This document shows, one piece after another, positions 6,977 through 52,130 of a stretch of 64,000 nucleotides of DNA. The stretch lies in assembly GCA_025823825.1 (NCBI GenBank), contig GCA_025823825.1_4720.1. One strand, written 5' to 3'. Every line of letters starts with the position of its first letter. The stretch's first letter is position 1. Source of the DNA: a phage. Under the pieces are notes generated by a model. The model was not told where the DNA came from, did no database searches, and saw only the letters and a program-made list of their open reading frames with translations. The translations under genes were made by a program, and so were the position numbers.

Positions 6977-7604
6977 TGATACCTTCTATTAGTTGTACAG
7001 CAACTTCTTTTTCGGTGCTATAAAAGAACTTGCGGTGGAACTGAACAAGAAGCTTTTCGAATTTACATTGAACGATCTTTTTGCGTTCGATATGACCCAG
7101 GGAGAGCAAAGCACCCATGCAACGTACCGCTTGTTCGAGAACTTGTTTCGCGGTATCGTGATCGTCCGGTAACGGTAAATCTTCCTCATCGTCTTTAGCG
7201 ATAAGGCGTCTGATGATGTTATCGATACGTATCTCATCACCGTTAATAAAAGCCCCCTTCTCCCAGTCATCGAATCGTTGATGGATTCGACGTTGTAAGT
7301 TGGCTCTGTCTTCCATTAACTCTTTCAACTGGCTTTCTAAGTGGGATACGGTACGGCGGTCGGTTTCAGTGAAGTTTTCCGATTCTTTGTACCACCAATC
7401 ATTACGCGATAGTAAATCGTTAACGCGCGAAATCGTCCGACGACACTCACTAACAAGCCCATCACCATTCGGTAGCTCCGTGCCGAAATAGCATTTGTAT
7501 TTATAACGCATAACACGGATTAAACGTTTCGCTAGAAAACCTTGCCTTTCCAGTTTCTTCTTCAGTTGTGTGTATTTCTCTTCTTTTGTTTCCATTAATT
7601 CCAT
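6963..7604 (-). CDS. hypothetical protein
   Basis: 213 aa ORF. Confidence 0.45.
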   Translation of the reverse strand: MELMETKEEKYTQLKKKLERQGFLAKRLIRVMRYKYKCYFGTELPNGDGLVSECRRTISRVNDLLSRNDWWYKESENFTETDRRTVSHLESQLKELMEDRANLQRRIHQRFDDWEKGAFINGDEIRIDNIIRRLIAKDDEEDLPLPDDHDTAKQVLEQAVRCMGALLSLGHIERKKIVQCKFEKLLVQFHRKFFYSTEKEVAVQLIEGINEVK

Positions 7605-7993
7605 GATGTTGTACCTCGTTCAGCAATCAGGAGAGTCGTGGTTGTGCTTTTCACTAATCTATTAAAGTCTTGATATATCCGCCTGAGGGATGGTTTCAAA
7701 TCACAATAACGGCTGAAATAAACCTTCAAGTCATCTTTTGTCACAGTCTCCGTATTTATTTTCGTAGAAACACCGAGATCGATAAACTCTTTTCTTAATT
7801 GGGATAATTCATCAAGAAGTCGATGGTGGCTTAGATAAATAACAGATTTATCGGATAACAACTCGCCGGTTATCCGGCTCTGGCGTTCATCGAAATATTG
7901 GAGCCGCCATTCAATTCGCTTACGTAATTTATCAAGTAAATCAACAAAAGCGGTATAGCTGTTAACGGCTAGGTTAACTTGACTCGTTATCAT
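7595..7993 (-). CDS. hypothetical protein
   Basis: 132 aa ORF. Confidence 0.4.
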   Translation of the reverse strand: MITSQVNLAVNSYTAFVDLLDKLRKRIEWRLQYFDERQSRITGELLSDKSVIYLSHHRLLDELSQLRKEFIDLGVSTKINTETVTKDDLKVYFSRYCDLKPSLRRIYQDFNRLVKSTTTTLLIAERGTTSWN

Positions 7994-10558: not shown

Positions 10559-11440
10559 TCAGTAACAGTTATAATGGGTTCCAAGCCGCTCCGGTTTTCT
10601 CAGAAGACTATCTTTAAGCGGTACGACGTCGATATCAACGTTTTCTGAATAATAACCATTAGAACTACCATACCAACGAATAACAACACATCCTTTTGCT
10701 GTACGAATATGGTAAAATGTCCATCGCGTACGTTTGCAAAAGTCGTCATCCTCGTCTCTTTCCTCGGTTCTTTCTTCAGCGCTAAGTATCTTCTCACCAA
10801 TAATGTCGTTAAGATCGCCATCGATGTCTTCAAGGTACACTTTTTCACAGCAATCTTGCTTATGGCAGAATTCAACAACGTTCCCATCGCCCCGATAGAA
10901 AAGAAGGGCAATGCTGTATTGTAGCTGTTCGGCCGTTAAGTCTGTCGCGCAATACAAACTTTGATCTTCGGTTATCACCAAGACATTGTTGATTACGTGT
11001 CCGGCAAGCGCTCCGATCTTATTTACCGTGATAATCGGACGAACGGGTTCAGGTTGAACGATCGGAATACGAACACAACCAATTAAGGCCATCCGTCCTT
11101 TCTTTGGTCTAACCGCAAGGTAAGGTGATTTTCTTGGGTGGTTATGCAGACGTATTTCTAATTCGTCAAATTTAATCCCGTATATACCTAAGAAACGATC
11201 GAACAACCGATGAAACTCATCTGTTGCTTCTTTCAACGTTATGGTGTCTACCGTGAGTTTATGTCCCCTGAACACCCGGGTTATATCGATAACGTCGAGT
11301 GTTTTAAAATGTATTTCCGTAAGGGGGTGATTTGTATTTTCCAGGTATGTAATGGTTCTTTGAACCGCGATTTTAGGTGACGCACCTTTAAAACGTTTCA
11401 GGTATTTAACACGATAGCGTGTATGATCTGATGTTAACAT
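10559..11440 (-). CDS. hypothetical protein
   Basis: ORF-track N-terminus reads through the upstream hairpin; start set at ATG 11440 (MLTSDHTRY) preceded by GGAGAGGAG. Confidence 0.5.
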   Translation of the reverse strand: MLTSDHTRYRVKYLKRFKGASPKIAVQRTITYLENTNHPLTEIHFKTLDVIDITRVFRGHKLTVDTITLKEATDEFHRLFDRFLGIYGIKFDELEIRLHNHPRKSPYLAVRPKKGRMALIGCVRIPIVQPEPVRPIITVNKIGALAGHVINNVLVITEDQSLYCATDLTAEQLQYSIALLFYRGDGNVVEFCHKQDCCEKVYLEDIDGDLNDIIGEKILSAEERTEERDEDDDFCKRTRWTFYHIRTAKGCVVIRWYGSSNGYYSENVDIDVVPLKDSLLRKPERLGTHYNCY

Positions 11441-11507
11441 TTTAATCTCCTCTCCCGACTTCAGAGAATTCTTAAAATCCGTTAGTTTTGATAGATGAGG
11501 TAAGACG

Positions 11508-11534
11508 GCATAAAAGCCTCCCGTAATGGGAGGC
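11508..11534 (-). terminator. hairpin GCCTCCC-GTAA-GGGAGGC followed on minus strand by TTTTATGCCG
   Basis: Inverted repeat seen directly; sits just downstream of the 11548 stop. Confidence 0.55.
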
Positions 11535-13092: not shown

Positions 13093-13155
13093 GTTAACCC
13101 CAATACGAGCATAACCCTCCTCCAACCCATCAGGGAAGGAGGAGGGAATATGCTG

Positions 13156-19482: not shown

Positions 19483-19506
19483 CATAAACCCTCCCCGAAG
19501 GGAGGG
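19483..19506 (-). terminator. hairpin CCCTCC-CCGAAG-GGAGGG followed on minus strand by TTTATGCTG
   Basis: Inverted repeat seen directly, downstream of the 19517 stop. Confidence 0.55.
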
Positions 19507-21303: not shown

Positions 21304-21327
21304 CACGTAAGTAATATAGCCGTGAAA
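21304..21327 (-). promoter_or_regulatory. conserved promoter-like motif, copy 1 (minus strand TTTCACGGCTATATTACTTACGTG)
   Basis: One of 4 near-identical copies, all 50-70 nt upstream of minus-strand gene starts; core TATATTAC. Confidence 0.5.
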
Positions 21328-21399: not shown

Positions 21400-21440
21400 C
21401 CCCGGCCTCCTCCCCAGGAAAGGTGTGGGGAGGAGTTTTT
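21400..21440 (+). promoter_or_regulatory. hairpin CCTCCTCCCC...GGGGAGGAG plus TTTTTAT at the start of the plus-strand unit
   Basis: Same hairpin family as the terminators but here no plus-strand gene lies upstream. Confidence 0.4.
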
Positions 21441-25128: not shown

Positions 25129-25167
25129 TCTTCCTCCCTACCCATAACGGGCGGGGAGGAAGGTTTT
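25129..25167 (+). terminator. hairpin CTTCCTCCC...GGGAGGAAGG followed by TTTTATGGCG
   Basis: Inverted repeat and T-run seen directly between convergent genes. Confidence 0.55.
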
Positions 25168-25180
25168 ATGGCGTTATAGC

Positions 25181-25519
25181 TTAGAACCAGAGTTCTTTCA
25201 TGAGGTAGGCTTCCATATCGTAGATAAGCCACGCATCGGGGATTTCTAAAGGATCGTCTTCGGTTAAGGTCAGCATGTGCAGGGCGAACGCACGCTTGAT
25301 ATCTTCCAACAGCTTATCATCACCGTAATCCTCGGGTAGTTTACGGTCAACCAGCTGGGTTTGTTTATAGACGTCGCGGAACGCTTCAGGGCTGTGTTTG
25401 TCCATCGGGAATTGTTCAGCAGCCTGAACCATCGTCAACGTCCAGCTTACAACATTGTAACGCTCACCGTTAATTTCACTGAACTGATCATCGATTAAAC
25501 AGATTTGTTGTACGTTCAT
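25181..25519 (-). CDS. hypothetical protein
   Basis: 112 aa ORF. Confidence 0.4.
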   Translation of the reverse strand: MNVQQICLIDDQFSEINGERYNVVSWTLTMVQAAEQFPMDKHSPEAFRDVYKQTQLVDRKLPEDYGDDKLLEDIKRAFALHMLTLTEDDPLEIPDAWLIYDMEAYLMKELWF

Positions 25520-26477: not shown

Positions 26478-28052
26478 TTACAATTCAAAATCTTCATCGA
26501 TAACACGCTGGGTAAGCACTTTGTCGCTGAAGAACTCCACCTTGCGCTGATGGTATTTACGGTGCGCTTCGATAGAAGTACATACCAGATACCAGAACGT
26601 TGGCGTCATTCCTTCAAACTTTCCTTTCAGCTGACGCAGTCGTCCCAACACCTGAATGTTACCGGTTCGTGACCCCATCGCTAATGTCATGAACGTCATC
26701 ACCAAGTCAGGAAGGTCGATACCTGTACCTGCCGATTTCACCGTTGTAACGCTAATATCGTTATCCAGCAAGACCATGAAGTCTTCTTCAGCAGTATAAG
26801 GACCGATTTCTAACTCAGGGATACGTTCACTGAGATAATGCGACAACGACTTACACATATCGACGGTTGCACAATACACCAGCATCTTCATACCTTCCTG
26901 ATACTGGTTCATGAAACCCTTGATAATAACGGTATAGATGAAGTTAAAATACGCGAGTTTGAGTTGCTTGTTCTTCATGATAGACTGTTCGAATATCGTG
27001 TGCGAATAAGCTCCACCAAACCCTTTGTATCTGACTTTATCTGTACTGCGTAGTCGGTACGTTACCGCATTTACCGCAATGTATTTCTTGTATTCGCCTT
27101 TCGCATAACGGGCTTCTTTCGGATACATCAAATACAGCATCTGTTCGATAAACGGATCATCGGATACCGCTGTTGCCGACAGATAAATGATTTCCGGAAT
27201 ATTGGCGTAACACTTGACCTTAAACAAGAAATGCAATGCTTCGTGACACTCGTCATGAATCAGCAAACCTATGCCGGTCTTTTCCCAAAACTCAGCGGGA
27301 TGAAAGGCATATGGCGCAACGCAGTTATTCTTCTCGTAGTCCGCAATATAACGTTGGAACATGTTCAAGGAGAACAATGCGATTTTGAAGTCGAGTTCAC
27401 CTTGTTCAACCAAGGTTTGAAACTCCAACATACTGTAACGAGGAATGTCGGGATGCGGTGGATCCTCCTTAGCGTTCCCGCGTATCTCGATAACGTCCCC
27501 TGGTTCCATCCCGAAGAAGTTCAGCAGTGAGCTTCGCCAACCTGGCATGTATCTCGGCGACAGAATGATACCCGTCCGTACACCGCGTCGGAAGGTGATC
27601 TCCTGCGACATGGCCGTTTTTCCTGACCCCGTTTGAGCGGTGTTTAGGCTCATTCTGAAGGGGGTATCCTTACCCCCGTCCATGTACTCCAACCATTCTT
27701 GCTGATCTTGACGCCATGGAAACTTCCATTTCTTTACGAACTCCACTTCTTTACCTGGTACCGGATCGTGATAGACGATTTCCAACCACTCTTTTCGTAT
27801 CCCTCGGGAAAAGATAAAATCCAAAAACGATTTCAACTGTTCACGGAGTAAGTATACCTCGCTATAATCGCTTCTTGCCGCGGCATACGTGTTTATGGTA
27901 TCGGTAACCATTCTCCGTGTACGAGGGTCACGCCGTTTCCTCAGATGCAAACAACGGTCTCGAAGGTAATGGCCGATAAGATGGGCAAATCGAAGTCCGT
28001 ATCCGCTCAGCCTCATGCCGTGCGAGAAGACGTCGATACGAGCTAACTTCAT
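26478..28052 (-). CDS. superfamily 2 DExH-box helicase
   Basis: 524 aa; AQTGSGKT, HDECHEA, SAT, QVLGRLRQ motifs. Confidence 0.75.
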   Translation of the reverse strand: MKLARIDVFSHGMRLSGYGLRFAHLIGHYLRDRCLHLRKRRDPRTRRMVTDTINTYAAARSDYSEVYLLREQLKSFLDFIFSRGIRKEWLEIVYHDPVPGKEVEFVKKWKFPWRQDQQEWLEYMDGGKDTPFRMSLNTAQTGSGKTAMSQEITFRRGVRTGIILSPRYMPGWRSSLLNFFGMEPGDVIEIRGNAKEDPPHPDIPRYSMLEFQTLVEQGELDFKIALFSLNMFQRYIADYEKNNCVAPYAFHPAEFWEKTGIGLLIHDECHEALHFLFKVKCYANIPEIIYLSATAVSDDPFIEQMLYLMYPKEARYAKGEYKKYIAVNAVTYRLRSTDKVRYKGFGGAYSHTIFEQSIMKNKQLKLAYFNFIYTVIIKGFMNQYQEGMKMLVYCATVDMCKSLSHYLSERIPELEIGPYTAEEDFMVLLDNDISVTTVKSAGTGIDLPDLVMTFMTLAMGSRTGNIQVLGRLRQLKGKFEGMTPTFWYLVCTSIEAHRKYHQRKVEFFSDKVLTQRVIDEDFEL

Positions 28053-30055
28053 AACGTGATTACATCCTCCGGTTTAGGTTCTTTACGCGGTAACAGCATG
28101 TAGTCGATCGGATGATCCGGCTTCATGGTTGGGATATAACTGTTCGGGTTTTGGAACGCATCCAGCTGCTCTTGGTGAGCGAACTTCATACTCAAGGAGC
28201 GCATGTTCATGTTCTTCTTGAAGGTACTGAAGTATCGTGTTGTTCCCTGTTTCGGCATGCGATAATCTTTCGTGTGCGGTGAACGAATCATGCTGGCGTA
28301 GAGAATAACATCGAGATGCGAAAGGTTCATTCGCAGACGCTGGGCACACAGACGATGCCAATAGTACAGCACGTTTGCAACTTCTTCCGGTGTTGCTTCG
28401 TCTTCCGAAAGGAATCCGGCACTGAAAGAACCTTTCCCGAATTTGAATTCACGTTCGATTTCTTTTGCGTATTCCATCATGTTTTTGTGGATTAACGGCA
28501 TCTGGAATAACGTACGTGAATTGTCCCAATGTTTCAAGTCGAAAATCACAATCCCGTCAGACGTCACTTCCCAGCTATGGCGTTTAAGATAACGGATAAA
28601 CGCTTTACTCGGTACAACAGGACGTCCACAGAAATCGAAATTGACTTTGAGCTTACGATAGCTTTCATCTTTCCTGTCGTAAATCTCCATATCGCAAAGC
28701 GTCATGTTAAACAAGCGTTGCGGTATCAGCGAACTGATTTCTTCCGCTTCGGCTACGTCGTACAACATGTTCGCAAGACCTAACTTCATCTTAATCAGCA
28801 CGTGTTTACCTTTCAGCTCACGTGCGAGTTTGATGTCGTTCATGTTCTGGCTATAGCGAAGGATATGTTGATATTCCGGTGGGATTGGTGCTGTGGATAC
28901 CGTTGACGAACCATCGTGGTGTTTGGTAGAAAGAATGTTCTGCGTCACCTGTTGCGAACAGGTACGCGCTGCGCCATCGCCGACATTATCAGTCAATGCG
29001 AAGTTATGACTTAATTCACCGTAACACGTTGTACATACCCCAGCAGGATCGGGATGATGACAATAGTTAACGGAGCGCATGCGTACCGTCGTGCCGATCA
29101 ATTCTTTCATGTGTGGTTGTATCGCTACCAACGAACCGTCATCACGAATAATGAATCGACCATGGAAGCCACGCAGGTCGGTCTCGTCGCGGATTGGCAT
29201 CGGGATGGTCTCTTTACTACCACAATCACCAGGATGGAGTCGTTGTACAACCGCTGTCGCTATCTGAAGTTCACGACCGAAATATTCAGACTTTTTAATC
29301 TGCTCTTTGTTGAACAGCAACGATTTTGCCGCAGAACGACTTTCTTTCAAGCTGTCGGGAAGAGAGATCAAACCGGCTGCGTATGACCGCATTACTGGAT
29401 CACGGAATATCTCGGAGTTAATATCGGTCAAGAATCCACGCATCCCAATACACTGCAGCACCTGTCCAATCGAAACGTGTTCGGTTCTTACCGCACGTGC
29501 GATAGGGTTTGCATGTAACGTTTTATCGGTGCTCAGTACCTTTGTCAGTTTCTTGTATGCGCTTTCGATACCTTCACGGGTGGGTTCCGCTTCGGCGATG
29601 ATTTTCTTAACTTCGGGATGTACGGTAATCTGATAAAAATCGTCCGCGCAAATCGTTGTTACGTATTCCTCCAACGCATACGTAAAGAAGTTATATACGT
29701 TGTTGAACATATCGAACAGTGCTTTCCAGAGAACCTCACGATTCTCTTGTGGGTAAGCATACATGCATTGACGATACGCTGCGCTTTGCAACGCAACCGA
29801 CGAACCAGCAGTAAACTTGCGTTTATCGACCAGGTTCTCTTTTGTCAATGGTGTCTCAGGATACATGCGATGCACAGACCAGTGCATGTAACTAAAGAAA
29901 ATGCGTCGCGCACGCAATTCATGAACGCCATCGTCCATCTCGATATATACACGGTCATTAGGCTGTGCCCACTCGAACACCTCATCAACCGGCCAATGCA
30001 TAAGCTCGCGTGCCCTCACACGACGTTTCGTGGTGGTCGTCTGTGTTATAGTCAT
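28049..30055 (-). CDS. RNA polymerase beta'-like subunit, C-terminal portion
   Basis: 668 aa; VLQCIGMRGFL...YAAGL...GDCGS resembles bacterial beta' region F/G (QLAGMRGLM...FREGL...DDCGT); compared from memory. Confidence 0.6.
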   Translation of the reverse strand: MTITQTTTTKRRVRARELMHWPVDEVFEWAQPNDRVYIEMDDGVHELRARRIFFSYMHWSVHRMYPETPLTKENLVDKRKFTAGSSVALQSAAYRQCMYAYPQENREVLWKALFDMFNNVYNFFTYALEEYVTTICADDFYQITVHPEVKKIIAEAEPTREGIESAYKKLTKVLSTDKTLHANPIARAVRTEHVSIGQVLQCIGMRGFLTDINSEIFRDPVMRSYAAGLISLPDSLKESRSAAKSLLFNKEQIKKSEYFGRELQIATAVVQRLHPGDCGSKETIPMPIRDETDLRGFHGRFIIRDDGSLVAIQPHMKELIGTTVRMRSVNYCHHPDPAGVCTTCYGELSHNFALTDNVGDGAARTCSQQVTQNILSTKHHDGSSTVSTAPIPPEYQHILRYSQNMNDIKLARELKGKHVLIKMKLGLANMLYDVAEAEEISSLIPQRLFNMTLCDMEIYDRKDESYRKLKVNFDFCGRPVVPSKAFIRYLKRHSWEVTSDGIVIFDLKHWDNSRTLFQMPLIHKNMMEYAKEIEREFKFGKGSFSAGFLSEDEATPEEVANVLYYWHRLCAQRLRMNLSHLDVILYASMIRSPHTKDYRMPKQGTTRYFSTFKKNMNMRSLSMKFAHQEQLDAFQNPNSYIPTMKPDHPIDYMLLPRKEPKPEDVITL

Positions 30056-30200
30056 TATTGCTTTCCGATTTAAATGGTTTTATCATACGGTTTACCAAAT
30101 CCGTTGGACTTTACTATCGTTGTGATAGCATCGGGAATCCCTTCCCTTAGGTTATGTAGGTGTTAATATATCTCCACTGCTGACCTTTATGTCGGCAGCA

Positions 30201-30686
30201 TTATCCAGCTTTCTGTTGTAAAGCGTATGGATCCATAGCGTCTGACATATCCGCAAAAACGGTGAGAATAAACCCCTTTATCTGTCTCACCTCGGTTACA
30301 CGAAGCCCTTTATCATTGCGATATACGTTTTCTTCACCGACTAACTTTGGTCGAATAACATAAACTCCATCAACAAGCGGGAATGTCGGATACGGATAAA
30401 TACCAATACGAATGATGTTTGGGTGATCGCCTAGAAGGTCACGTCCAAACTTATCGACTCGACCATAAATCGCCCCATCCGCACCTTCCACTTCAATGAG
30501 ATCATTTCGAATATCCTGAAATAGTTGCTCTAACGTGTCGGCGGGATACGCATATGCGACGCCTAACGCCGGATCCTCGACGGTTTTGACACTGAATCCG
30601 TTAAGCCAAACAATCCGTTCATCCGCCCATGTTTCTTCATATACCGTTAATCCATCGCCGTATATGTTGGCGTGTGCTATCTCCAT
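30201..30686 (-). CDS. hypothetical protein
   Basis: 161 aa ORF. Confidence 0.45.
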   Translation of the reverse strand: MEIAHANIYGDGLTVYEETWADERIVWLNGFSVKTVEDPALGVAYAYPADTLEQLFQDIRNDLIEVEGADGAIYGRVDKFGRDLLGDHPNIIRIGIYPYPTFPLVDGVYVIRPKLVGEENVYRNDKGLRVTEVRQIKGFILTVFADMSDAMDPYALQQKAG

Positions 30687-30843
30687 AATCTCATTTCCTC
30701 TTATACGTTAGGATAGATGACATGTTGGATATACGTTGCCTTTGCATATATTGCTTTATTTCCGTCAGAAATAACGGAAAATAAAAACAACGACATAGTT
30801 CCCTCCCACCTCCACATGGGAGAGGGAGGGCTATTCGTGTTTA

Positions 30844-31206
30844 TTACTCTATGCTGTCTTCTTCAGCACAATCCTCTTCTGAACCGTCGAACGTTTTCTG
30901 CACTGCAGTGGTATCCCAGTTGGCAGCGTAATCAGCCATCGCTTCGCGCAGTGCTTCTTCACCAGCATCACCGGCCAGGTCAAGCACAACCAAACCTTGC
31001 GCGACGTTTTGAGCGACAGTATCAATAACGGTCGCATCTTCTTCAAAACTACGTACCGGTTCAATGGTGCCTACATCAACAGCATAGTTCGTGGTCGCTG
31101 TAAGCACGGCGACTTGTAGCGCGTCGCTATCTTCATCATGCAATGCTGCTTCAATACCGATTGGACGGGCCAGTTCTTGCAGTGTTAATTTGCGAATTAA
31201 GTTCAT
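30844..31206 (-). CDS. hypothetical acidic protein, small paralog family
   Basis: 120 aa; VAQGLVVLDLAGDAGEEALREAM resembles TARGLMLLELFGEQGRTELQSEL of 31697-32107. Confidence 0.4.
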   Translation of the reverse strand: MNLIRKLTLQELARPIGIEAALHDEDSDALQVAVLTATTNYAVDVGTIEPVRSFEEDATVIDTVAQNVAQGLVVLDLAGDAGEEALREAMADYAANWDTTAVQKTFDGSEEDCAEEDSIE

Positions 31207-31227
31207 TATATTTTCCTCAGGTGAATG

Positions 31228-31578
31228 TTAGCAATCGTTTAAAACTTTTTCGATACGATGGTTGACGAATTCATTGAACGACTCTTCGGCTTGTTCGATA
31301 ATTTCATCAACGTCGATATCTAATTGTTGGGGTTGGATAACATGCTCTTTCATGGTTTCTAGCCAGTATTCGGCTTTAACCATAACGTTAGCGACATGTT
31401 CGACCTGACTGCGTATGTCGACGATCTGGCAGTCAGGATTGTTAATATCGATGATGTGTCCGTGGTGGTTGATAAAACCTAGCTTATTTGATGCCCTTAC
31501 CGCATCGCGGGTAAGTTCTTGCAAGATTAAATTATTGACGTAGTTCACTGCTACGGAACGATTTTCGTTATCACTCAT
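31228..31578 (-). CDS. hypothetical protein
   Basis: Start set at ATG 31578 (MSDNENRS) with AAAGAGG upstream. Confidence 0.4.
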   Translation of the reverse strand: MSDNENRSVAVNYVNNLILQELTRDAVRASNKLGFINHHGHIIDINNPDCQIVDIRSQVEHVANVMVKAEYWLETMKEHVIQPQQLDIDVDEIIEQAEESFNEFVNHRIEKVLNDC

Positions 31579-31647
31579 ACCAGGGATCCTCTTTAAGTCT
31601 TCACATTCTAGTGTTAAGCAGTTAAAATAAACCGTTCCTTTAATCAG

Positions 31648-31687
31648 CATAAACATCCTCCTCCCACCACATGGGCAGGAGGAGGCG
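31648..31687 (-). terminator. hairpin CCTCCTCCC...GGAGGAGG followed on minus strand by TGTTTATGCTG
   Basis: Inverted repeat seen directly. Confidence 0.5.
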
Positions 31688-31696
31688 TAATATGCA

Positions 31697-32107
31697 TCAG
31701 AAAGGAGGACGATCTTTAAATTCTAACAACGTGTCTTCGAAGCAAGCGATGAGTTCAGACTGCAATTCGGTACGGCCTTGTTCACCGAAGAGTTCCAGCA
31801 ACATTAACCCCCGAGCGGTCTTCGTAGCAACCTCTTCGCAGATGCGGAGATCGTGAACTTCATCATCGTTGACATCTTTACGCAACTGTGCCGCAATGGG
31901 CTTAAGATTGCCGTTTTCATCGTGTTCGTCACGAAATGCATCATAAGCCGCATCGATGTTCGCGATCCGTGTCAATCCTTCAGAATCCCGCCAGTCTCGA
32001 TATAATCCAAGCAGACGGTTATGATTCTTCGTTTTGACGTTCGGTGCTGGAAGGTTGCGCAACAGATGTGGTGTAATCATTGCTATCACGCTATCCGAAT
32101 GATCCAT
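31697..32107 (-). CDS. hypothetical acidic protein, small paralog family
   Basis: 136 aa ORF. Confidence 0.4.
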   Translation of the reverse strand: MDHSDSVIAMITPHLLRNLPAPNVKTKNHNRLLGLYRDWRDSEGLTRIANIDAAYDAFRDEHDENGNLKPIAAQLRKDVNDDEVHDLRICEEVATKTARGLMLLELFGEQGRTELQSELIACFEDTLLEFKDRPPF

Positions 32108-32118
32108 CGTATACCTCG

Positions 32119-34287
32119 TTAGCTTTCGCAGTCATCTGCGTCGATGATTTGTCCGCCAGCAACGTTCAGTTGATGATACAGAATCCTCAACGCACGGTTG
32201 CCGCCAATGGGATATTTCTCGAAGTTGGTTGCAATAGGAATCGCTGACGGTTTATCGGTCGCATAGATGCTTTCGGTGATGCTATCCACCTGTTTTGGAT
32301 TGTTCGCATAATCCATAAAGACGCTTGCGAACCATCCGCCAGCAAAGGCGGTAACCTCACGATGTTCAGATTCGCCACAGTAACGAGTCGGTTGCTCTTT
32401 ACCCGGAGAACTGTATTTATCGCTATTACTGAGTTTCGACGGTAATCCGTGCGCTTGCAATTTAGGGATACCCACCGCTGACCAATCGTTCGCCGTCTTC
32501 TCCAACATCATGATGTACGTGTCACCGATCGCAATATCGTTCTTGGTTGTCCGCCATTGCCCGGAACGCCCACGGTATCGTACAGGACCTTTCTTCAACG
32601 GGAACTCACGAATCAGATTCTCCATACGTTCTGAACCTGCTGCGATACTGTCCGTCGGGATATAAACTTCCGTACCGTGGCGTTGTACGTACCGTAAATG
32701 ATCCCATTTATCCTCATCCGTGATACAGTATTTTTCAACAACCTGTTCCACGAACTCAGGACTGACGATATAGTAGTAGCGCATCAGTGTGTTCCAAGCG
32801 GTCTCCAGATCGCCTGCATCCATCACCGGTTTCAGTTCACGCATGATCTGATCACCAACGCCGTTGATGTAAGGTGCGTTAACACGACTTAAACTCATCC
32901 TTTTGATTACCGTACTATCGTCGAACATGAAGTCCGCAACGTTACCCCATTGGTCGACCGGCATTTCATCGTCTTCCATGATGTCGGTTACGACGAATTT
33001 ATCACCCGCCATACCGGTGAATTTAAACCCGATACCTGGAACAACGTCGTACGTGTACGTGATGGTCACACGCCAATCATCGAGATTCTCTTTACGGTAA
33101 TCGCGGGTTGGTAATACATGACGTAGCTGTCCGTTGGGATTGCGGATATCAATACCATGTTCAGCATCAGCCAGGTTCAACCACCACATCACCGTTTGAT
33201 GATGACGTATCGGCGTACCAACGCGTTCACGTTCGTACTTACGAACAGCATCCTGAATTCGGGTGTAAAGCAAACCAATCGCGTTCTCGTATTTCAGGAA
33301 TTGACGATACGGAGGACGCATCTTCTCTTCCATCATAATCGCACGCTCGCGGGCTTGACGTCCAGAACGACGATGTCGGTCGCTGACAACATCGATATCC
33401 GTTACACGCGCATTCGGTTCCGCGTAAGTGAGATCATCGTAAACATAATCCACACGCTGAAGGTTACACGTCATCATGTCAACAACGCTGAGGATAGGAT
33501 CGATTTCGCGTGTTGCTGCAAGTAACCCATCCTTACGAATACGCTCACCATTCTCGGGTATTGCTTGGTATACCTCGTCATCGCCGTAGAGATTGATTGG
33601 GTATCGTGATTTACCTGATGTGATCGTCCGCTTCTCAATGCCGGTACTGGTGAAATGCTTCAATACACCACGACGGGCAACACCACCATCCTCGATACAC
33701 TGATAGAAGCTACCGAAACACACCTTGCAATCGCGACCGTAACCCCACTCGCGTGTTTCTTGATTGATCGCTGGGCTTTCCATCAAACGAGAATATCGCG
33801 GTACGATCTGGCCTCGACGGAGGGAATGGAACAAGTTGGTTGGTCGAAAACGGAAACCGTACTGCTGATGCATGATGTGATGCTCAGGCACTTCAAGCAA
33901 GCGTAGTTCGTGGCGGTTACCATCCTCTTGGTTTTCGTACAGCACGTAATGCATCGTGTTTGTTTTGATGCTGTTTGCTGTATGCCCCGGTTGGAAACGT
34001 GGGATGATATCTATGATGCGAGATTCAACTGGAAACTCTACTGACCAAGTGTTCTGTCCGTACTGGTATTCGATCCCCGTCGTCAGTCGGGACGGTTTCG
34101 CATCTTTGATAACCAACGCTTGGCTAAGATGTCCGCCAAACATCGCAGCGCGCTGTGCTGAGTTATAATGCAATAGCCCGTTAAGTCCAGTCCCTACGCC
34201 AGTATACTCCTGTTTAATGGGAATGATTTTACCTTCAGCGATTGCCTGCTTCACAGATTCATAAAGAGGTTTTTCTTTATAATGCAT
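32119..34287 (-). CDS. RNA polymerase beta-like subunit, C-terminal portion
   Basis: AGDKFVV..EDDEMPVDQWGNVADFMF..RMSLSRV and GESEHREVTAFAGGW resemble bacterial beta GDKMAGRHGNKG...EDMPYDENG and GEMEVWALEAYGA; start at ATG 34287 with AGGAAG upstream. Confidence 0.65.
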   Translation of the reverse strand: MHYKEKPLYESVKQAIAEGKIIPIKQEYTGVGTGLNGLLHYNSAQRAAMFGGHLSQALVIKDAKPSRLTTGIEYQYGQNTWSVEFPVESRIIDIIPRFQPGHTANSIKTNTMHYVLYENQEDGNRHELRLLEVPEHHIMHQQYGFRFRPTNLFHSLRRGQIVPRYSRLMESPAINQETREWGYGRDCKVCFGSFYQCIEDGGVARRGVLKHFTSTGIEKRTITSGKSRYPINLYGDDEVYQAIPENGERIRKDGLLAATREIDPILSVVDMMTCNLQRVDYVYDDLTYAEPNARVTDIDVVSDRHRRSGRQARERAIMMEEKMRPPYRQFLKYENAIGLLYTRIQDAVRKYERERVGTPIRHHQTVMWWLNLADAEHGIDIRNPNGQLRHVLPTRDYRKENLDDWRVTITYTYDVVPGIGFKFTGMAGDKFVVTDIMEDDEMPVDQWGNVADFMFDDSTVIKRMSLSRVNAPYINGVGDQIMRELKPVMDAGDLETAWNTLMRYYYIVSPEFVEQVVEKYCITDEDKWDHLRYVQRHGTEVYIPTDSIAAGSERMENLIREFPLKKGPVRYRGRSGQWRTTKNDIAIGDTYIMMLEKTANDWSAVGIPKLQAHGLPSKLSNSDKYSSPGKEQPTRYCGESEHREVTAFAGGWFASVFMDYANNPKQVDSITESIYATDKPSAIPIATNFEKYPIGGNRALRILYHQLNVAGGQIIDADDCES

Positions 34288-34318
34288 AGGACTTCCTATT
34301 ATCGAATTGAGGTACGTC

Positions 34319-34672
34319 ATGTCTAACACGCCCCTGAACGACTTTCTTAAGACAAACCCCGATGACCTCATCCACGATCTTGATTTCAGGAACGTTGTTG
34401 AGATGCATCTGGAATATTTCAAAAATGCCGGACTGGTCTCTACGATAGACATACCACCCGAACGTGCCTACGAATTCGATGGTAACTTTTATGGATTGTG
34501 TCGTGTTCTGCTCGGCGAGGGTAGCGAACCAATGCACTGGATAACCATGAGACTCAATGGTTATCGTGACCCTACGGAATACACCGCCGATGTTCTAACC
34601 ATGAAGATTGTCGATACAAGCGCAATCAACACATTAAAACAACAGTACCGCACAATCCACTACAGCGCTTAA
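34319..34672 (+). CDS. hypothetical protein (isolated plus-strand gene)
   Basis: 117 aa from ATG 34319 with GAGG upstream; divergent from beta gene. Confidence 0.5.
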   Translation: MSNTPLNDFLKTNPDDLIHDLDFRNVVEMHLEYFKNAGLVSTIDIPPERAYEFDGNFYGLCRVLLGEGSEPMHWITMRLNGYRDPTEYTADVLTMKIVDTSAINTLKQQYRTIHYSA

Positions 34673-34677
34673 GATAA

Positions 34678-34712
34678 CCCTCCCACAGCGTAAAGCGTAG
34701 GGAGGGCATTTA
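34678..34712 (+). terminator. hairpin CCCTCCC...GGGAGGG followed by CATTTATGCCG
   Basis: Inverted repeat directly after the 34672 stop. Confidence 0.55.
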
Positions 34713-36073: not shown

Positions 36074-37660
36074 TTAGAAGTTGCCTTTGGTAGTTACCGC
36101 ATCCACCAGGTTAAACAAATCAACACTCAGCTTATACACCTCCTGCTGGCTACGGTTGAGCAGCGGGCTGTATGCGGATGGGTTGATGTTCGGCATGGTG
36201 TACGGAATCGGTGCAGAGCCGTCAACGCTGATCTTGAACTGGCTGTCCAGGAACAGGTTAATCGCGCCGCTCACCATAACCGCATTCGGGTTGTTACCCA
36301 ACATGGAGGGTAGGATATTGGTAATCATGTCAGAACGCATTTGTTCAGCAGCACGGTTACAATCGTATCCTTTAATGAAAGGTACAGCGTCGGTAACCGC
36401 AACCGCCCACTGACCAGGCATGATACCGAGTTCTGGGTGACCATGGTTGTCAGCAATAAAACGGAACGACTCCAACATGCGGTACGTCATCGCAGCAGGC
36501 ATCATTGCAGCAAGCGATGAGCAATACAGCGTTGGATAATCGATCACGTCCCAGCTCTGGCTGTCGGTCGGCATCCAACCAAACTCGGTGGTTGCTGATG
36601 TACCGCGACGAGCTTCCACATACGGGAATAACGTTAAGACGTCACGGATATGTTCACCGAACATCCGTTTCATGTCAGCCCAACTCAGGCTACCGCTGAA
36701 AGCGAATCCTTCATCACGCATAATCGCACCGAATACCGGATGCGCGACCAGCGGTTCTTCACGAACAGCTTGAGCGGCTTCTACGTAAATATCCTCGTTC
36801 TCTGCGCTACCTGGATGAGACCCGCTTTCGTACGTCTGACGAATAGCCCCAACATTATCGAAGGCTTTTCTCAGATAGATGGTTGGGATGTTCGTATCGG
36901 CACTAGCTGGTTTGATTTTCTCTGTTGCGAAACACATTGCTGCTTCCACACCACGGAAAACCGGTTCCGGTTGCGGTGGGTAGGATGTACGATGAACCAC
37001 GTCAGCGTAGGCGGGATCGAACTGCTGCATTACGTTCTGCATGGCTGGGTCCATGAACTGGTTATCAAAACCACCATTGCCCACCCAACGTGCTGTCGAT
37101 GCATAAGTCAGTGTATCCTGAACACGAGTACTGAACTGAACATCGCGATTAACAGGGTCGTATGCACCGGTCAACAGGTTCGTTGCGTCCATCGGGGTTG
37201 CACGAACAATTTGCTTACCGAACATATCTGTCGTGGTTGTTTCGGTTACCTGGATTACGTTCGTGAAGAAGAACACCAGTTCATTCGGCAGATCGATAGC
37301 ACGCGTTGTAAACGCATCGAGGCTTACAGAATGGTCGGTGTATCCAGAAATGTAATGGACACGCTTGGTTCCTGGTGCAAGGGCCAAGGATTCTTCTACA
37401 GCCATCATGAAATGGAAACGACGTGTGCCCCAACCATTCGCAATCTCCGAAACCCCCTCAGGTTCTGCAGACTGCTGCAACAAACCGGTTGCAAGCTTGT
37501 TGATTGCTGATGGTGTTGTTGCCGTACCGAACCGCGTCGTGTTAATAAAGTCTTCGATGCTACGCATGCTATCTGCGTGGAATCGTAGTGGACGACGTTG
37601 TACGTTGTTGTACGGTGCGGTTTCAACCATCAGTATTTCACGAACATTCATCGGGATCAT
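36074..37660 (-). CDS. hypothetical protein
   Basis: 528 aa ORF, 1 nt after upstream stop. Confidence 0.55.
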   Translation of the reverse strand: MIPMNVREILMVETAPYNNVQRRPLRFHADSMRSIEDFINTTRFGTATTPSAINKLATGLLQQSAEPEGVSEIANGWGTRRFHFMMAVEESLALAPGTKRVHYISGYTDHSVSLDAFTTRAIDLPNELVFFFTNVIQVTETTTTDMFGKQIVRATPMDATNLLTGAYDPVNRDVQFSTRVQDTLTYASTARWVGNGGFDNQFMDPAMQNVMQQFDPAYADVVHRTSYPPQPEPVFRGVEAAMCFATEKIKPASADTNIPTIYLRKAFDNVGAIRQTYESGSHPGSAENEDIYVEAAQAVREEPLVAHPVFGAIMRDEGFAFSGSLSWADMKRMFGEHIRDVLTLFPYVEARRGTSATTEFGWMPTDSQSWDVIDYPTLYCSSLAAMMPAAMTYRMLESFRFIADNHGHPELGIMPGQWAVAVTDAVPFIKGYDCNRAAEQMRSDMITNILPSMLGNNPNAVMVSGAINLFLDSQFKISVDGSAPIPYTMPNINPSAYSPLLNRSQQEVYKLSVDLFNLVDAVTTKGNF

Positions 37661-37661
37661 T

Positions 37662-39248
37662 TTATTTTTTTCCTCTTAAATTTACTACGTGTTCATTTAA
37701 TCGAACAACTAATTGCACAAGTTGCTGACGGATATCTGCTGGACAAAGCATCAATCCTTTACGATCAGCTGGGACTTTCTCAAGGATTTCCGGGCCTGCT
37801 GCTGAAACATCCCAGTCCCATTCACAAAACGCATCGGCCACCATGTTAATACCGACAACCGGTAAAGTTGTACGTTCATCTTCATACATGGCGTGTGGAT
37901 ACAATTTATTGACAGTAATGATCTCCTGTGGTTTTAATTGGTGGATAATCTGATAAACATCGTCGCGTTTAACCTGGATACCTACGGTCAGCGCTGCCAG
38001 TTGAGGAAAACCCCAATGGTCTAATAAGCAAGCTGCAATCGCTAACGCTTTTGCTTGATGCACGGCTTCAATCGGTGCCAGACTTCTCGCCGGAAGATGG
38101 CTATCAAGCAACCATTGTGCCAGTGCTCGGCATCCACGGTTGATTGGTTTTAACTCAACGCTGTCATCGTGCTTAGCGTACGTGTATCCGTCGTAACGTT
38201 TTGCGATACGCGCATACATGTCTTCAACTTTACCGTAAGGTGCCGTTTCGTCGACGTCGTGTAACACACGTTCCATCTGGGTAAGATACGCGATGTCAAG
38301 AATGAGTACACGCGGTGAACGTTTATCTTTCACCATCAACGCATCAATCACGCCTTGACTGTCTTCATCTTGCGCGTTCCCTCGTGGGGTTTTCTCACGA
38401 ATCGGTCCGCTGAAACGTCGTTCCGTACAAAGGTTATTCACATAGCTAAAGATCAGTGTTACCAGATGCGTACAACTCACCAACACCCCATCTTTAACGA
38501 CAGGCTGTACGGCTTGGTCCAAGTCGCGTACGGCGAGACGGCGGACGATGGCTTGTGAACGCAACCAGCCGGGCACTTTCTCCGTCGACATGTAATCCAC
38601 GGTCATCGACAGCGTGATCTTTTTATCACCCGTCTGTGCGCGGATATAGTCTTCCAGTCGGTCGTAAGCGGCGATATCATGAATGCGTGTTTTATACATC
38701 AACGACATAGCCACTTCTTCTTTACGGACTGTCCCGTACGTTTTCCCTGCGTCAATCAGAAACTCTGCCCAAATCGGCACCATCAGACGGACATAGATCG
38801 CTAACGCTGTTAACTCAACGTAATCATTTCGTAAATAGGTTTTCTCGGGTATATCGTCCTCACCTAATGTTGTTTTCATGTCCGGTGGTAATTTTACCCA
38901 ACCTGGGGTATTACACAACGCCAGAATCTCTTCATACACAACCGGTTTGTAAATCTCACCAACAGCGCGACTCAACTCCTCCATTTGTTGTTGTGGAGCA
39001 ATGTAGTTATCCATCGCTTCACGTGCTTTAACGAACCCTTCGAAGATGTCGTCAATTCGACGTGGGTTCTTTTGTTCTATCCAGGCGAGATACTTGTTAA
39101 TCTCCCGCATCTGATTGCTAGCCATATCCCCATCAATCTTGATGTAACCCTGGCCTGAAAATTCCACAGTACGTCCATCACGATGTTTGATGAGATAGTG
39201 ATCCAGCTTTTCTTTTCCTTGCGTCGTAATGACGGGCACTATGTGCAT
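37662..39248 (-). CDS. hypothetical protein
   Basis: Start set at ATG 39248 (MHIVPV) with AAGAGG upstream; ORF-track N-terminus is leader. Confidence 0.55.
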   Translation of the reverse strand: MHIVPVITTQGKEKLDHYLIKHRDGRTVEFSGQGYIKIDGDMASNQMREINKYLAWIEQKNPRRIDDIFEGFVKAREAMDNYIAPQQQMEELSRAVGEIYKPVVYEEILALCNTPGWVKLPPDMKTTLGEDDIPEKTYLRNDYVELTALAIYVRLMVPIWAEFLIDAGKTYGTVRKEEVAMSLMYKTRIHDIAAYDRLEDYIRAQTGDKKITLSMTVDYMSTEKVPGWLRSQAIVRRLAVRDLDQAVQPVVKDGVLVSCTHLVTLIFSYVNNLCTERRFSGPIREKTPRGNAQDEDSQGVIDALMVKDKRSPRVLILDIAYLTQMERVLHDVDETAPYGKVEDMYARIAKRYDGYTYAKHDDSVELKPINRGCRALAQWLLDSHLPARSLAPIEAVHQAKALAIAACLLDHWGFPQLAALTVGIQVKRDDVYQIIHQLKPQEIITVNKLYPHAMYEDERTTLPVVGINMVADAFCEWDWDVSAAGPEILEKVPADRKGLMLCPADIRQQLVQLVVRLNEHVVNLRGKK

Positions 39249-39300: not shown

Positions 39301-39324
39301 CAAAGGTAATATAAGCGTGAATAA
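39301..39324 (-). promoter_or_regulatory. conserved promoter-like motif, copy 2 (minus strand TTATTCACGCTTATATTACCTTTG)
   Basis: TATATTAC core about 55 nt upstream of ATG 39248. Confidence 0.45.
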
Positions 39325-44577: not shown

Positions 44578-44601
44578 CACCTAAGTAATATAGCCGTGAA
44601 A
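44578..44601 (-). promoter_or_regulatory. conserved promoter-like motif, copy 3 (minus strand TTTCACGGCTATATTACTTAGGTG)
   Basis: About 65 nt upstream of ATG 44512. Confidence 0.5.
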
Positions 44602-45444: not shown

Positions 45445-45475
45445 CATAAACCCTCCCCGCCTTGTGCAGGGAGGG
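45445..45475 (-). terminator. hairpin CCCTCCC...GGGAGGG followed on minus strand by TTTATGCCG
   Basis: Inverted repeat downstream of the 45491 stop. Confidence 0.55.
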
Positions 45476-46737: not shown

Positions 46738-47113
46738 CTGTTATCGACTATATCTTCATCCTCGTTGCGAGGAGTCTCCCGTTTTGGTCTGTGTTTAACA
46801 GAGCCTACTCTACTCGACATCGCGTCTTTCGATAGTCTGTGAGCACACATCTTAACGAACATTCGTGGATTCCTAAACAGGTGAACGTTCTTGTTGAGAT
46901 GCTTCGCTGCGGATTATTCCCGTCCTACCTCTTTTACCCTACCCAGTTCATTACGCTGGCCCTCATCTGTGTCACCACGATGAGTTGGTGTGTAGTCCGA
47001 TTACAGAAACTTCCCGTCAATTAGAGAGTTTTAACTACGTTCCTGTTACCAGAAACCAGATCCCGACGGTATCAATAAATCAACGTAAGTTATTGATTTA
47101 ATTGAAAAAACTG
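46738..47113 (-). ncRNA. group I intron B (ORF-less), boundaries approximate
   Basis: Minus-strand AATTGACGGGAAG (P), AATCCGCAGC (Q), GCTCACAGACTATCG (R), AAGATATAGTCG (S) in canonical order; GGTAGGGTAAAAG P5-like. Confidence 0.6.
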
Positions 47114-47126
47114 AAATCTGCATTAT
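47114..47126 (-). CDS. proposed 13-nt micro-exon 2 (AT AAT GCA GAT TT, completes Y and encodes NAD)
   Basis: Joining exon 1 ...AAA GGG T to this gives MILKG-YNADF; preceded by G, ends in U. Confidence 0.4.
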
Positions 47127-47492
47127 CTTAATCTTCAGTATGGTTCGCTACTCCATACCCGTACGTCATGTACTGCTTACGTCTTTCACGTAAGAAGAGA
47201 CTATATCTTTCACCCTCAGCATTATCTGGTCGGGGCTCCCATTTCGGCGGTCAGATGACCGGTGGTTTCCCACGCCGCTTGGCCCTAACGCCCGTAAGCG
47301 ATAGTCGTTGAGCGCATCTCCGTTCTGGAGACTTCGCTGCGGATTCCCCAATCCTTGCCGCTTTTACCATACCTGAATGATTAGTTCAGCCCCACGCTCT
47401 GTTCCCAGGCGTGGTTGGTGGACAAGGCTCTAAGTAGGTTCCCGCATTAGAGAGTTCTGCGTGACAACATTTCTGCGTTACTGGGCCTAACG
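47127..47492 (-). ncRNA. group I intron A (ORF-less), boundaries approximate
   Basis: Minus-strand TAATGCGGGAACC (P), AATCCGCAGC (Q), GCTCAACGACTATCG (R), AAGATATAGTC (S); GGTATGGTAAAAGCG P5-like; GCCC near 5' end can pair with exon GGGU. Confidence 0.6.
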
Positions 47493-48735
47493 ACCCTTTC
47501 AAGATCATCACGCTTAACCCGATGGTGTTATCCTGCGGATCGCGTTTAACCTTGGTGATTTCAAGACATTGGTTACTGCTTCGGTCAAGTGATGGGTTTC
47601 GAACAAAGCCACACACAATCCCATCGAACGGTGTATCAGCAATAAGCTCATCGTGCAGCTCGCTCATCATTGGATGATAATTACGGACATGTTCCGCAAC
47701 GAACGCACGTGCTGCTCTCGGTGAATAACCACGATGGAATAACTTGGATTGGATATGTTCTTTATTGGTTAAAGTAAATGGTGCGTATGGGAAATGCAGA
47801 TGATAATAACGATGGTTCGCTGTTATCGAACTGATTACGGTACGCGTGGTGAATGGATGTAATGTACCTAATATGTTTTTACGTGTGATACCTTTCTTCT
47901 TACCAATGAACTCATCGAAAATTGCTGCGTGGTATTGCAGTAGCTTCAATTGCACTTTCGCCATCCAGTTTTCTTTCTTTCTGGCGCTCAAAGGTGTTGT
48001 TGGGTGATAGATACTGTTCAACGTACCAATAGCATCGATCGCACCTTCCATTTTGCTATCTGCATAACGACCGGTTGGCGTATTCTCGATAACGAACATC
48101 ATGGCCGCAGGAAAGCTGATATACTGGCTGAAGAACTTATCACGATGGATACGGATGAATTCTCGTAGCGTGTCAACTTTCTCCGTGTTCTTCGGTCCAC
48201 GTAACGTAGGTCCTTTATACAAGATCTCCATTATGCGATCGAAGTTCTGTATAAAGCTATTTACGCCGCGACGTATCCCGAATACATCGAATTGCTGCTC
48301 CAGATAGTTCTTGAGTTCGATGGGTCGTTTTACATTTGGACGGTAACTGGCATCAATGAGCCACGTCATCGTTTCAAAGCTTTTGATATTCAACTCGCTT
48401 GCCAGCACGAGATGGACCAACGGGTTAATGAACGCATCAATTCCTTCAGGAACACGCGCCCAAACCGTCGAACGAATCTCCTGTTCTGCCGGGTAGGTCA
48501 CGACCGTTTTACAGTTTGGACACACCGTGCCGAGTAGCTCACCACGATTGTAGAAACCACAACCACATTGTGGTGTGATATCCAACGTATCGCTGGAGTA
48601 AACACGGGTGATAAAACTGTTTAATTTCTTCTTCTCTTCGACGACTTTTGTATCGTAATCATTCAACAAAATCGGCGTAAAAGGAAGTTCTGCGAGCTGT
48701 CTATCGAAACTCACGATATCGAGCATGATGGCCAT
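47493..48735 (-). CDS. RNA polymerase beta' N-terminal subunit, exon 1
   Basis: Zinc ribbon CGCG...CPNC, GRYADS, KNILGTLHPFTTRTVIS, RNPSLDRSSNQ in beta' order; ORF ends just before DFDGD would be expected; 35-aa ORF tail is intron read-through. Confidence 0.65.
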
Positions 48736-50788: not shown

Positions 50789-50812
50789 CACCTAGGTAAT
50801 ATAACCCTGAAA
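50789..50812 (-). promoter_or_regulatory. conserved promoter-like motif, copy 4 (minus strand TTTCAGGGTTATATTACCTAGGTG)
   Basis: About 70 nt upstream of ATG 50723. Confidence 0.5.
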
Positions 50813-52073: not shown

Positions 52074-52130
52074 CACCTCCCTCTTCCCTTGCATCCTCCC
52101 AACCCGTAAGGGAAGGGAGGATGGGGTGGC
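52074..52130. terminator. compound C-rich/G-rich hairpin between convergent genes (likely bidirectional)
   Basis: CCTCCCTCTTCCCTT ... AAGGGAAGGGAGG imperfect inverted repeat followed by GGTTATGTT. Confidence 0.45.

Follow-up and report, generated by a model that had tools for sequence, protein, structure and literature searches.

T7 Ocr (gp0.3), ArdA, Arn and Ugi are small acidic proteins that mimic DNA. Other phage proteins are carried inside the virion, such as the PhiKZ-type inner-body or ejected head proteins of jumbo phages (PF12699; gp53-gp58 in Escherichia phage vB_EcoM_Goslar, hereafter Goslar) and the internal proteins of T4. The PF12699 head proteins are encoded by late genes and their injection is validated. 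The non-virion RNA polymerase (nvRNAP) of PhiKZ contains a fifth subunit, gp68, which is neither beta nor beta' and is linked to the nvRNAP genes. This subunit is large and conserved across the family. Here, we analyze three adjacent genes, termed A, B and C, on a 64,000-nucleotide stretch of phage DNA (contig GCA_025823825.1_4720.1 of GenBank assembly GCA_025823825.1; the window refers to this whole stretch). The genes lie between the nvRNAP beta and beta' subunit genes and are direct orthologs of Goslar gp168, gp169 and gp170.

The locus can be compared with each of these systems. Like Ocr, gp168 is small (120 aa), polyanionic (net charge -21), early, abundant and a lineage-specific accessory. 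It has no sequence similarity to any such mimic family, however, and the phage already shields its DNA in the vesicle and the nucleus. As for the inner-body and T4 internal proteins, gp168 and gp169 were detected at ~100-200 copies per virion in purified particles, in which non-virion proteins reach similar levels, but they belong to the early expression class and lack PF12699. As non-beta/beta' proteins linked to nvRNAP genes, the cluster proteins are analogous to PhiKZ gp68. In contrast to gp68, they are small, restricted to the Goslar lineage and missing where beta and beta' adjoin. The three genes are annotated as hypothetical proteins and gp168 has been flagged in the literature. The literature on Goslar gives no function for them and does not mention gp168/gp170 paralogy, an insertion into the nvRNAP operon or gp170 alleles. 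New here are the module-level paralogy of A and C, the insertion into the nvRNAP operon, the allelic cassette formed by gp170, and the assignment to the early class, which contrasts with the virion claim.

An accessory cassette in the polymerase operon

Comparative gene order indicates that A, B and C, together with gp166, form a 2.06-kb accessory cassette of the Goslar lineage that interrupts the nvRNAP beta-beta'-helicase operon as an insertion. Over positions 30000-34500, the window shares 97.7% identity with Goslar (Chimalliviridae), and the whole 64 kb is collinear with Goslar ~123.6-186.2 kb. All genes of the cluster are encoded on the minus strand: A at 30844-31206 (120 aa, isoelectric point (pI) 4.05, net charge -21), B at 31228-31578 (116 aa, pI 4.67, net -12) and C at 31697-32107 (136 aa, pI 4.96). 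The proteins share 100%, 94.8% and 99.3% identity with Goslar gp168, gp169 and gp170 (YP_009820853-55), respectively, with identical order and spacing and no difference of substance. Upstream of C lies the beta gene (32119-34287, minus strand; gp171 ortholog, 722 aa; phrog_3295 at 2e-180), which has an in-frame upstream extension to 34452 absent from the Goslar annotation. The start codon of C is located 11 nt past the beta stop codon. On the other side lies the beta' gene (28049-30055, minus strand; gp165 ortholog, 668 aa; phrog_3015 at 4.7e-170). The annotation of Erwinia phage RAY names the two orthologs 'nvRNAP beta subunit 2' (gp171) and 'nvRNAP beta' subunit 2' (gp165), and both genes are labelled 'nvRNAP' in Table S4 of a Goslar preprint (bioRxiv 10.64898/2026.04.21.720040). 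The cassette ends with the gp166 ortholog (30201-30686, minus strand; 161 aa, pI 4.51), which is unrelated to A, B and C. The original prediction for this DNA, made from the sequence alone, thus placed the three open reading frames (ORFs) and their polymerase setting correctly.

Ten Goslar-like genomes were compared, namely the window, Goslar and eight public contigs (with labels such as L002, L005 and L007-L011), and in every one of them beta and beta' lie 1987-2081 nt apart. In RAY (Erwinia), Eowyn (Klebsiella), Proteus phage 10 and Xoo-sp14 (Xanthomonas), beta and beta' abut or overlap, never more than 22 nt apart, and the helicase gene comes next. Because the two genes are contiguous in these four other chimalliviruses, the cassette is a lineage-specific insertion. 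Homologs of A, B, C or gp166 outside the Goslar-like genomes and one further contig, L015, were absent from 50,697 phage records (tblastn), with gp166 found in Goslar only. The same restriction to Goslar-like genomes and L015 was observed for the cluster proteins among 5.8 billion clustered proteins, for A when all of 1.84 billion representatives were scanned with HMMER, and in IMG/VR (sequence and profile scans) and metagenome contigs. The position of the cluster says little about its function. The original prediction had read an association with RNA polymerase from this position and had named synteny in related jumbo phages as a check. With beta and beta' adjacent in four chimalliviruses, no homologs outside the Goslar lineage and no co-occurrence with nvRNAP, that inference is not supported. 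The cluster is not conserved in relatives beyond the Goslar lineage, which the original prediction had itself named as counting against it.

A, B and C are genuine, expressed genes, because dN/dS values are near 0.1 and Goslar peptides were recovered for all three. Across the ten Goslar-like genomes, A and gp166 both have a dN/dS of 0.08, B has 0.09 and C, within allele classes, 0.11, compared with 0.005 for beta. Mass spectrometry (MS) of Goslar virions detected eight peptides of gp168 (50% coverage), three of gp169 and one of gp170 (bioRxiv 10.64898/2026.04.21.720040). Residues 1-98 of A are nearly invariant across the compared genomes.

The true start of B is at MSD(N/K)EN. Longer versions of B (142 or 140 aa, from an ATG at 31656 or 31650) were rejected since the extension is frameshifted or missing in six of ten relatives: it is frameshifted to a 28-aa upstream ORF in Goslar, L008, L010 and L011, and missing in L005 and L007. 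The C-B intergenic segment (31579-31656, minus strand) is a non-coding leader of B with a nearly invariant nucleotide sequence in the ten genomes, and it could be a regulatory leader. A 1-nt indel in this leader decides between the in-frame extension of B and the 28-aa upstream ORF (MFMLIKGTVYFNCLTLECEHLKEDPWYE), which overlaps the B start. The annotated 31-aa ORF gp167 (30701-30796, minus strand) is probably not a gene. Its frame is not kept in L002, L008, L009 and L010, it has no entry in the virion MS table and RNA reads are sparser over it than elsewhere in the region.

A shared module and unequal acidity

A and C are diverged tandem duplicates, paralogous through one module of ~38 residues. 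The module covers residues 56-93 of A (30928-31041, minus strand; EDATVIDTVAQNVAQGLVVLDLAGDAGEEALREAMADY) and residues 85-122 of C (31742-31855, minus strand; ...ICEEVATKTARGLMLLELFGEQGRTELQSELIAC). BLASTP of A against C returned no match. Smith-Waterman alignment of A with C scored 57, and with the divergent C allele 64, each equalled in 1 of 2000 shuffles. Aligning the two families with hhalign paired residues 57-91 of A with 86-120 of C (P=1.1e-3). Adding distant homologs from contig L015 improved the match to P=8e-5 (61% probability, 38 columns), and such a rise in significance with added diversity fits what homology predicts. These homologs are P0040, the one distant A ortholog recovered by the HMMER scan (48% identity), and a C-like protein on the same contig (29% identity). 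In a search with a hidden Markov model (HMM) of the C family, A was the best non-self match among 725 six-frame segments of the window (E=3.6e-5; runner-up 0.17) and again when the whole Goslar genome was searched as 2629 segments (E=1.4e-4). The A-family HMM reciprocally chose C in both sets. No third member of the family was found by HMM search of the 2629 Goslar segments. Comparison of the C alleles with the L015 homolog places the module among the best-conserved parts of C.

The L015 contig represents a sister lineage with a beta protein 66% identical to that of the window. Its gene order is beta, C-like, A-like and B is absent, which fits a tandem duplication with B later inserted or lost. 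Both A and C are followed by hairpins with an identical CAUGU loop, consistent with tandem duplication. B is not part of this family: hhalign gave P=0.04 over 14 columns against A and P=0.63 against C, Smith-Waterman scores of B against A and C remained inside the shuffle range, and the HMM search also showed no link. No similarity was found between gp166 and any of A, B and C.

Acidity differs markedly among the three proteins. A is the most acidic of the 79 window ORFs, with 27 acidic (D+E) against 6 basic (K+R) residues and a net charge of -0.175 per residue, where the fifth percentile of window ORFs is -0.079. Its C-terminal tail (residues 99-120; 30847-30912, minus strand; net -7) varies in sequence and remains constantly acidic, with nucleotide identity down to 57-65% in L002, L009 and L010. 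P0040 has the same 27 acidic and 6 basic residues and the same net charge of -21 despite only 48% identity. The polyanionic character of A appears to be under selection, because the charge is the same in P0040 and the tail stays acidic while its sequence varies. B is moderately acidic, with net -12 over 116 aa. C is ordinary, with net -9 and a pI below 5 that is shared by 27% of window ORFs. The original prediction of a paralog cluster with a shared motif and strong acidity in A and C therefore holds in part. The motif is real beyond chance and A and C are paralogs, but the similarity spans only ~38 residues, so that the term describes one common module rather than the proteins in full, and B stands apart. 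Strong acidity is borne out for A as an outlier and not for C. The second most acidic ORF of the window is the gp162 ortholog (25181-25519; 112 aa, pI 4.27), an early-class protein with ~127 copies in virion MS.

Early transcription and recovery in virion preparations

Transcription of the cluster can be assessed from published Goslar RNA data at 30 min in control and chimallin-knockdown cells (Armbruster et al., bioRxiv 10.1101/2023.09.20.558163, Supplementary Table 2). Under ChmA knockdown, infection stalls at the vesicle stage with only genes dependent on the virion RNA polymerase (vRNAP), i.e., early genes, being expressed (bioRxiv 10.1101/2023.09.20.558163). In these data, the log2 fold change upon knockdown is +0.84 to +1.12 for gp168, +0.60 to +0.94 for gp169 and +0.76 to +1.12 for gp170. 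The nvRNAP genes gp171 and gp165 range from +0.74 to +1.12 and from +0.36 to +0.59, respectively, and the non-virion proteins chimallin and PhuZ from +0.71 to +1.12 and from +0.35 to +0.54. Structural and validated packaged proteins (the major capsid protein, gp22, gp23, gp58, gp60, gp61 and gp208/209) range from -3 to -7 in the same source. The gp168-gp170 genes belong to the early class, with vRNAP-driven transcription independent of the phage nucleus, because their response to knockdown is like that of chimallin and unlike that of structural or packaged genes. RNA read density computed from the published counts is alike over gp165-gp172 (~1-1.6 reads/nt).

Protein recovery differs strongly among these genes. 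Label-free quantification MS of virions gave ~219 copies of gp168 and ~92 of gp169, compared with ~2.8 of gp170, ~1 of gp166, 0.25 of gp165 and 0 of gp171 (bioRxiv 10.64898/2026.04.21.720040). That gp168 and gp169 are far more abundant than their neighbors in the virion sample despite similar RNA is solid. The preprint lists gp168 as one of ten high-copy virion-associated proteins of unassigned function. The same preparation contained chimallin (~126), PhuZ (~171) and ChmC (~78), as well as E. coli proteins, which indicates that abundant non-virion proteins carry over into the virion preparation. The expression class of gp168 and gp169 is that of the carry-over proteins and not that of validated packaged proteins. 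Packaging of gp168 and gp169 is unproven. Two further published 'high-copy virion' proteins, gp158 and gp214, are of the early class like gp162. The early-class subset of the virion list (gp158, gp162, gp168, gp169 and gp214) may be carry-over like chimallin and PhuZ.

Two diverged alleles of gene C

Gene C occurs as two deeply diverged alleles with 53% protein identity, dN of ~0.40 and saturated dS, in genomes with beta proteins at least 99% identical. Sliding-window nucleotide identity of the window to L005, L007 and L002 drops from 92-100% in the flanks to 52-73% exactly across the C ORF, and returns to 97% at the terminator hairpin after C. The N-terminus and the module shared with A are conserved between alleles, and the two intervening segments are replaced. 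The distribution of alleles does not track the divergence of the flanks, which points to recombinational exchange of C alleles. Genes engaged in conflict with the host typically look like this, though the pattern is no proof of such a role. Host immunity can sense early jumbo-phage proteins (PMC12931631).

Possible functions of the cluster

We tentatively favor an early host-directed or anti-defence accessory cassette, in which gp168 would be a polyanionic decoy for a nucleic-acid-binding target and gp170 a diversifying paralog, and assign this reading a probability of roughly 40%. The three proteins would be early host-directed or anti-defence accessory proteins rather than polymerase subunits. 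With its conserved polyanionic surface and its acidic tail, the gp168 protein might engage a basic target that binds nucleic acid, serving as an electrostatic decoy or as a mimic of nucleic acid. The size, charge density and early expression of gp168 are compatible with DNA mimicry, and it is from an early, abundant, acidic and lineage-specific protein that we infer a decoy. The gp170 protein would be the rapidly diversifying member, with recombination swapping its alleles, probably in response to pressure exerted by host factors. A more specific and rather improbable version is that gp168 is a new kind of early, very abundant polyanionic decoy, partly carried in virions, which mimics nucleic acid and so neutralises a host defence or nucleoid protein that binds nucleic acid, at the vulnerable vesicle stage. 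In that version, gp170 would be a swappable specificity cassette in an arms race against host sensors, and the two would form an anti-defence module.

Several points weigh against a decoy cassette. The gp168-gp170 proteins have no known binding partner, structure or phenotype. AlphaFold2 models built on shallow alignments are of too low confidence to be usable, with a predicted local distance difference test (pLDDT) score of 40.3 for A and 48.7 for C. A, B and C have no significant match in Pfam, PHROG, NCBIfam or the PDB, A has no Pfam hit even at E<=10, and no homology to Ocr or ArdA was found. A protein can be acidic without being a mimic. Because the DNA of chimalliviruses is shielded, the need for a classical anti-restriction mimic is less obvious. 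The divergence of C alleles could stem from recombination with an unsampled relative instead of selection. Finally, C may have a role linked to the polymerase, as gp170 starts 11 nt from beta and is about as scarce.

In an alternative that we consider unlikely, gp168 and gp169 would be packaged as internal virion or ejection proteins, enter the cell together with the genome and act in or at the early infection vesicle. Their high copy numbers in virion MS, the presence of gp168 on the high-copy list, and the recovery of gp170, gp166, gp165 and gp171 at only 0-3 copies despite similar RNA read density would be explained by packaging, and B and A form a hairpin-bounded pair. Yet chimallin, PhuZ, ChmC and host proteins reached comparable levels in the sample, and gp168 and gp169 are early class whereas every validated packaged protein (gp58, gp60, gp61 and gp208/209) and the structural genes are late. 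The cluster proteins carry no PF12699, DUF7941 or other head-protein domain by Pfam, and gp168 is not among the GFP-fusion proteins of the preprint. A short N-terminal motif of A and B, N.[IV]..L.LQEL.R, was considered as a capsid-targeting signal and rejected, as hhalign reached only P=0.04 and no other Goslar protein carries the motif. Somewhat more doubtful still is the view of the original prediction that the proteins are RNAP-associated. At least one of them would then bind and regulate nvRNAP or vRNAP, e.g., as a DNA-mimicking inhibitor or a specificity factor. Acidic proteins are able to occupy the DNA-binding channels of polymerases, and the location between the nvRNAP beta and beta' genes with early co-expression, the short distance of gp170 from beta, and its scarcity in MS on a par with the nvRNAP subunits all speak for such a role. 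However, the position is not conserved, as nothing separates the beta gene from the beta' gene in four other chimalliviruses, and while every member of the family has an nvRNAP, the proteins occur only in the Goslar lineage. In the sole proteomic sample, which is of virions, gp168 and gp169 are more than 100-fold above the nvRNAP subunits. No cluster protein shows similarity to any RNA polymerase subunit or known factor. An association of the cluster with RNA polymerase is argued from position alone and is not supported.

A third explanation, in which gp168 would be a diverged RraA-like regulator of RNase E or the degradosome, is highly improbable and effectively refuted at the sequence level. 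It was suggested by weak in-register matches over residues 21-98 of A (NCBIfam TIGR01935 at E=0.025, PRK09372 at 0.044 and PDB 1nxj at E ~1). The NCBIfam score of 14.4 bits falls far below the cutoff of 123.8, though, and the unrelated N-acetylornithine carbamoyltransferase family outscores RraA. Profile-profile tests with hhalign gave P=0.098 against E. coli RraA, and against a 71-sequence RraA alignment P worsened to 0.21 once P0040 was added. P0040 itself scored only 1.4 bits against the RraA HMM, and A lacks a Pfam match to this or any family. RraA homology of A was therefore rejected, with the weak hits failing these tests and becoming weaker with the distant ortholog.

Probable terminator hairpins and candidate promoters

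Conserved terminator motifs have been identified in PhiKZ and 201phi2-1 by ONT-cappable-seq (PMC11512511). Goslar resembles these phages at the level of the class, with genome-wide families of sequence-conserved hairpins between transcription units. In the cluster, a terminator-type hairpin follows C (31657-31685, minus strand; 12-bp stem, CAUGU loop, -30 kcal/mol, z -5.5; TTTATGC tail at 31647-31653) and another follows A (30801-30830, minus strand; CAUGU loop, -26 kcal/mol, z about -4.5), each 15 nt past the stop codon. Both contain the core CCCATGTGG, which has no other copy in the 64 kb. Across the ten genomes, the stems are invariant and all substitutions fall within the 5-nt loop. The hairpin after A has a canonical TTTATGC tail in L008 and L009. 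The 21-nt B-A spacer contains no hairpin, so the expectation of one between each pair of ORFs is only partly confirmed. The window has 11 hairpins of the form CCTCC...GGAGG where 0.24 would be expected, and Goslar has 30. They are located 12-38 nt past stop codons and typically have a TTTATGC[C/T]G tail. The copies outside the cluster are at 11517-11533, 13116-13145, 19490-19505, 21406-21433, 25133-25159, 34679-34705, 45452-45474, 52095-52120 and 60583-60607. Such hairpins are probably the general terminator class of the phage and not specific to the A, B and C cluster. Several copies are identical (CCTCCTCCAACCCGTAAGGGAAGGAGG), and the 3' arm GGGAGG is often also Shine-Dalgarno-like for the next ORF. 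In Rfam, the cluster has no match at E<=1, and no family reaches its gathering score anywhere in the window.

A motif on the minus strand, TTTCACGGCTATATTAC, is found upstream of seven Goslar genes including chimallin. In the window, it is exact at 21311-21324 and 44585-44598 and has two mismatches at 39306-39319 and 50796-50809. The motif looks like a putative early (vRNAP) promoter. The copy at 39306-39319, CACGCTTATATTAC, differs by two mismatches from the early-promoter-like consensus and lies ~58 nt upstream of the gp175 ortholog. This promoter-like copy may drive the whole early block including the cluster. Inside the cluster, no copy of the early-promoter-like motif TATATTAC was found. 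A dedicated promoter for the B-A pair was considered and rejected, as k-mer comparison gave only a weak resemblance of TATTTTAAC to a few other upstream regions. In a scan for sigma-70 promoters, sites were no more frequent than in shuffles.

Other variable loci of the window

The window differs from Goslar and other relatives at several further loci. The SF2 helicase gene downstream of beta' (26478-28052) encodes 524 aa in the window and Goslar, 753 aa in L002 (14016-16277) and 861 aa in Proteus phage 10. These length differences suggest domain gain or loss, or insertion. Two tandem genes of 528 aa, the gp174 and gp175 orthologs, lie upstream of nvRNAP beta (36074-37660 and 37662-39248). At this position, RAY, Eowyn, Proteus phage 10 and Xoo-sp14 each carry three genes that are close to these in size (462-515 aa). 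By size and place, these genes may form a conserved putative paralog array beside the polymerase genes. Segments 1864-2713, 7594-7989 and 10559-11450 have no megablast match in Goslar and are variable accessory islands within surroundings that are 92-96% identical and collinear. The Goslar HNH endonuclease gene gp186 (1065 bp; Goslar 168217-169281) is not in the window, with an intron/homing-endonuclease polymorphism at 46739-47494. The group I intron segment annotated in Goslar is present at 46741-47126 and is followed by 368 nt without a Goslar counterpart. Rfam detected no Intron_gpI in the window at gathering score.

Implications for nucleus-forming phages

Goslar is the E. coli model of nucleus-forming jumbo phages, with ORFans making up most of its early genes. 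The cassette has no bearing on a long-standing open question and its overall importance is thus modest. The presence of early-class proteins (gp158, gp162, gp168, gp169 and gp214) on the published virion list calls for caution in interpreting the virion proteome. Although the published list counts gp168 as a high-copy virion protein, gp168 is early, found only in one lineage, extremely acidic and accompanied by a diversifying paralog. This combination shifts the focus from head structure to the localization, injection and partners of gp168. The gp170 gene, with its two alleles and sharp boundaries, is a cassette that may mark host-phage conflict. If gp168 and gp170 indeed acted together against host defences, they would be the first anti-defence module described at this locus for the nucleus-forming phages of E. 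coli.

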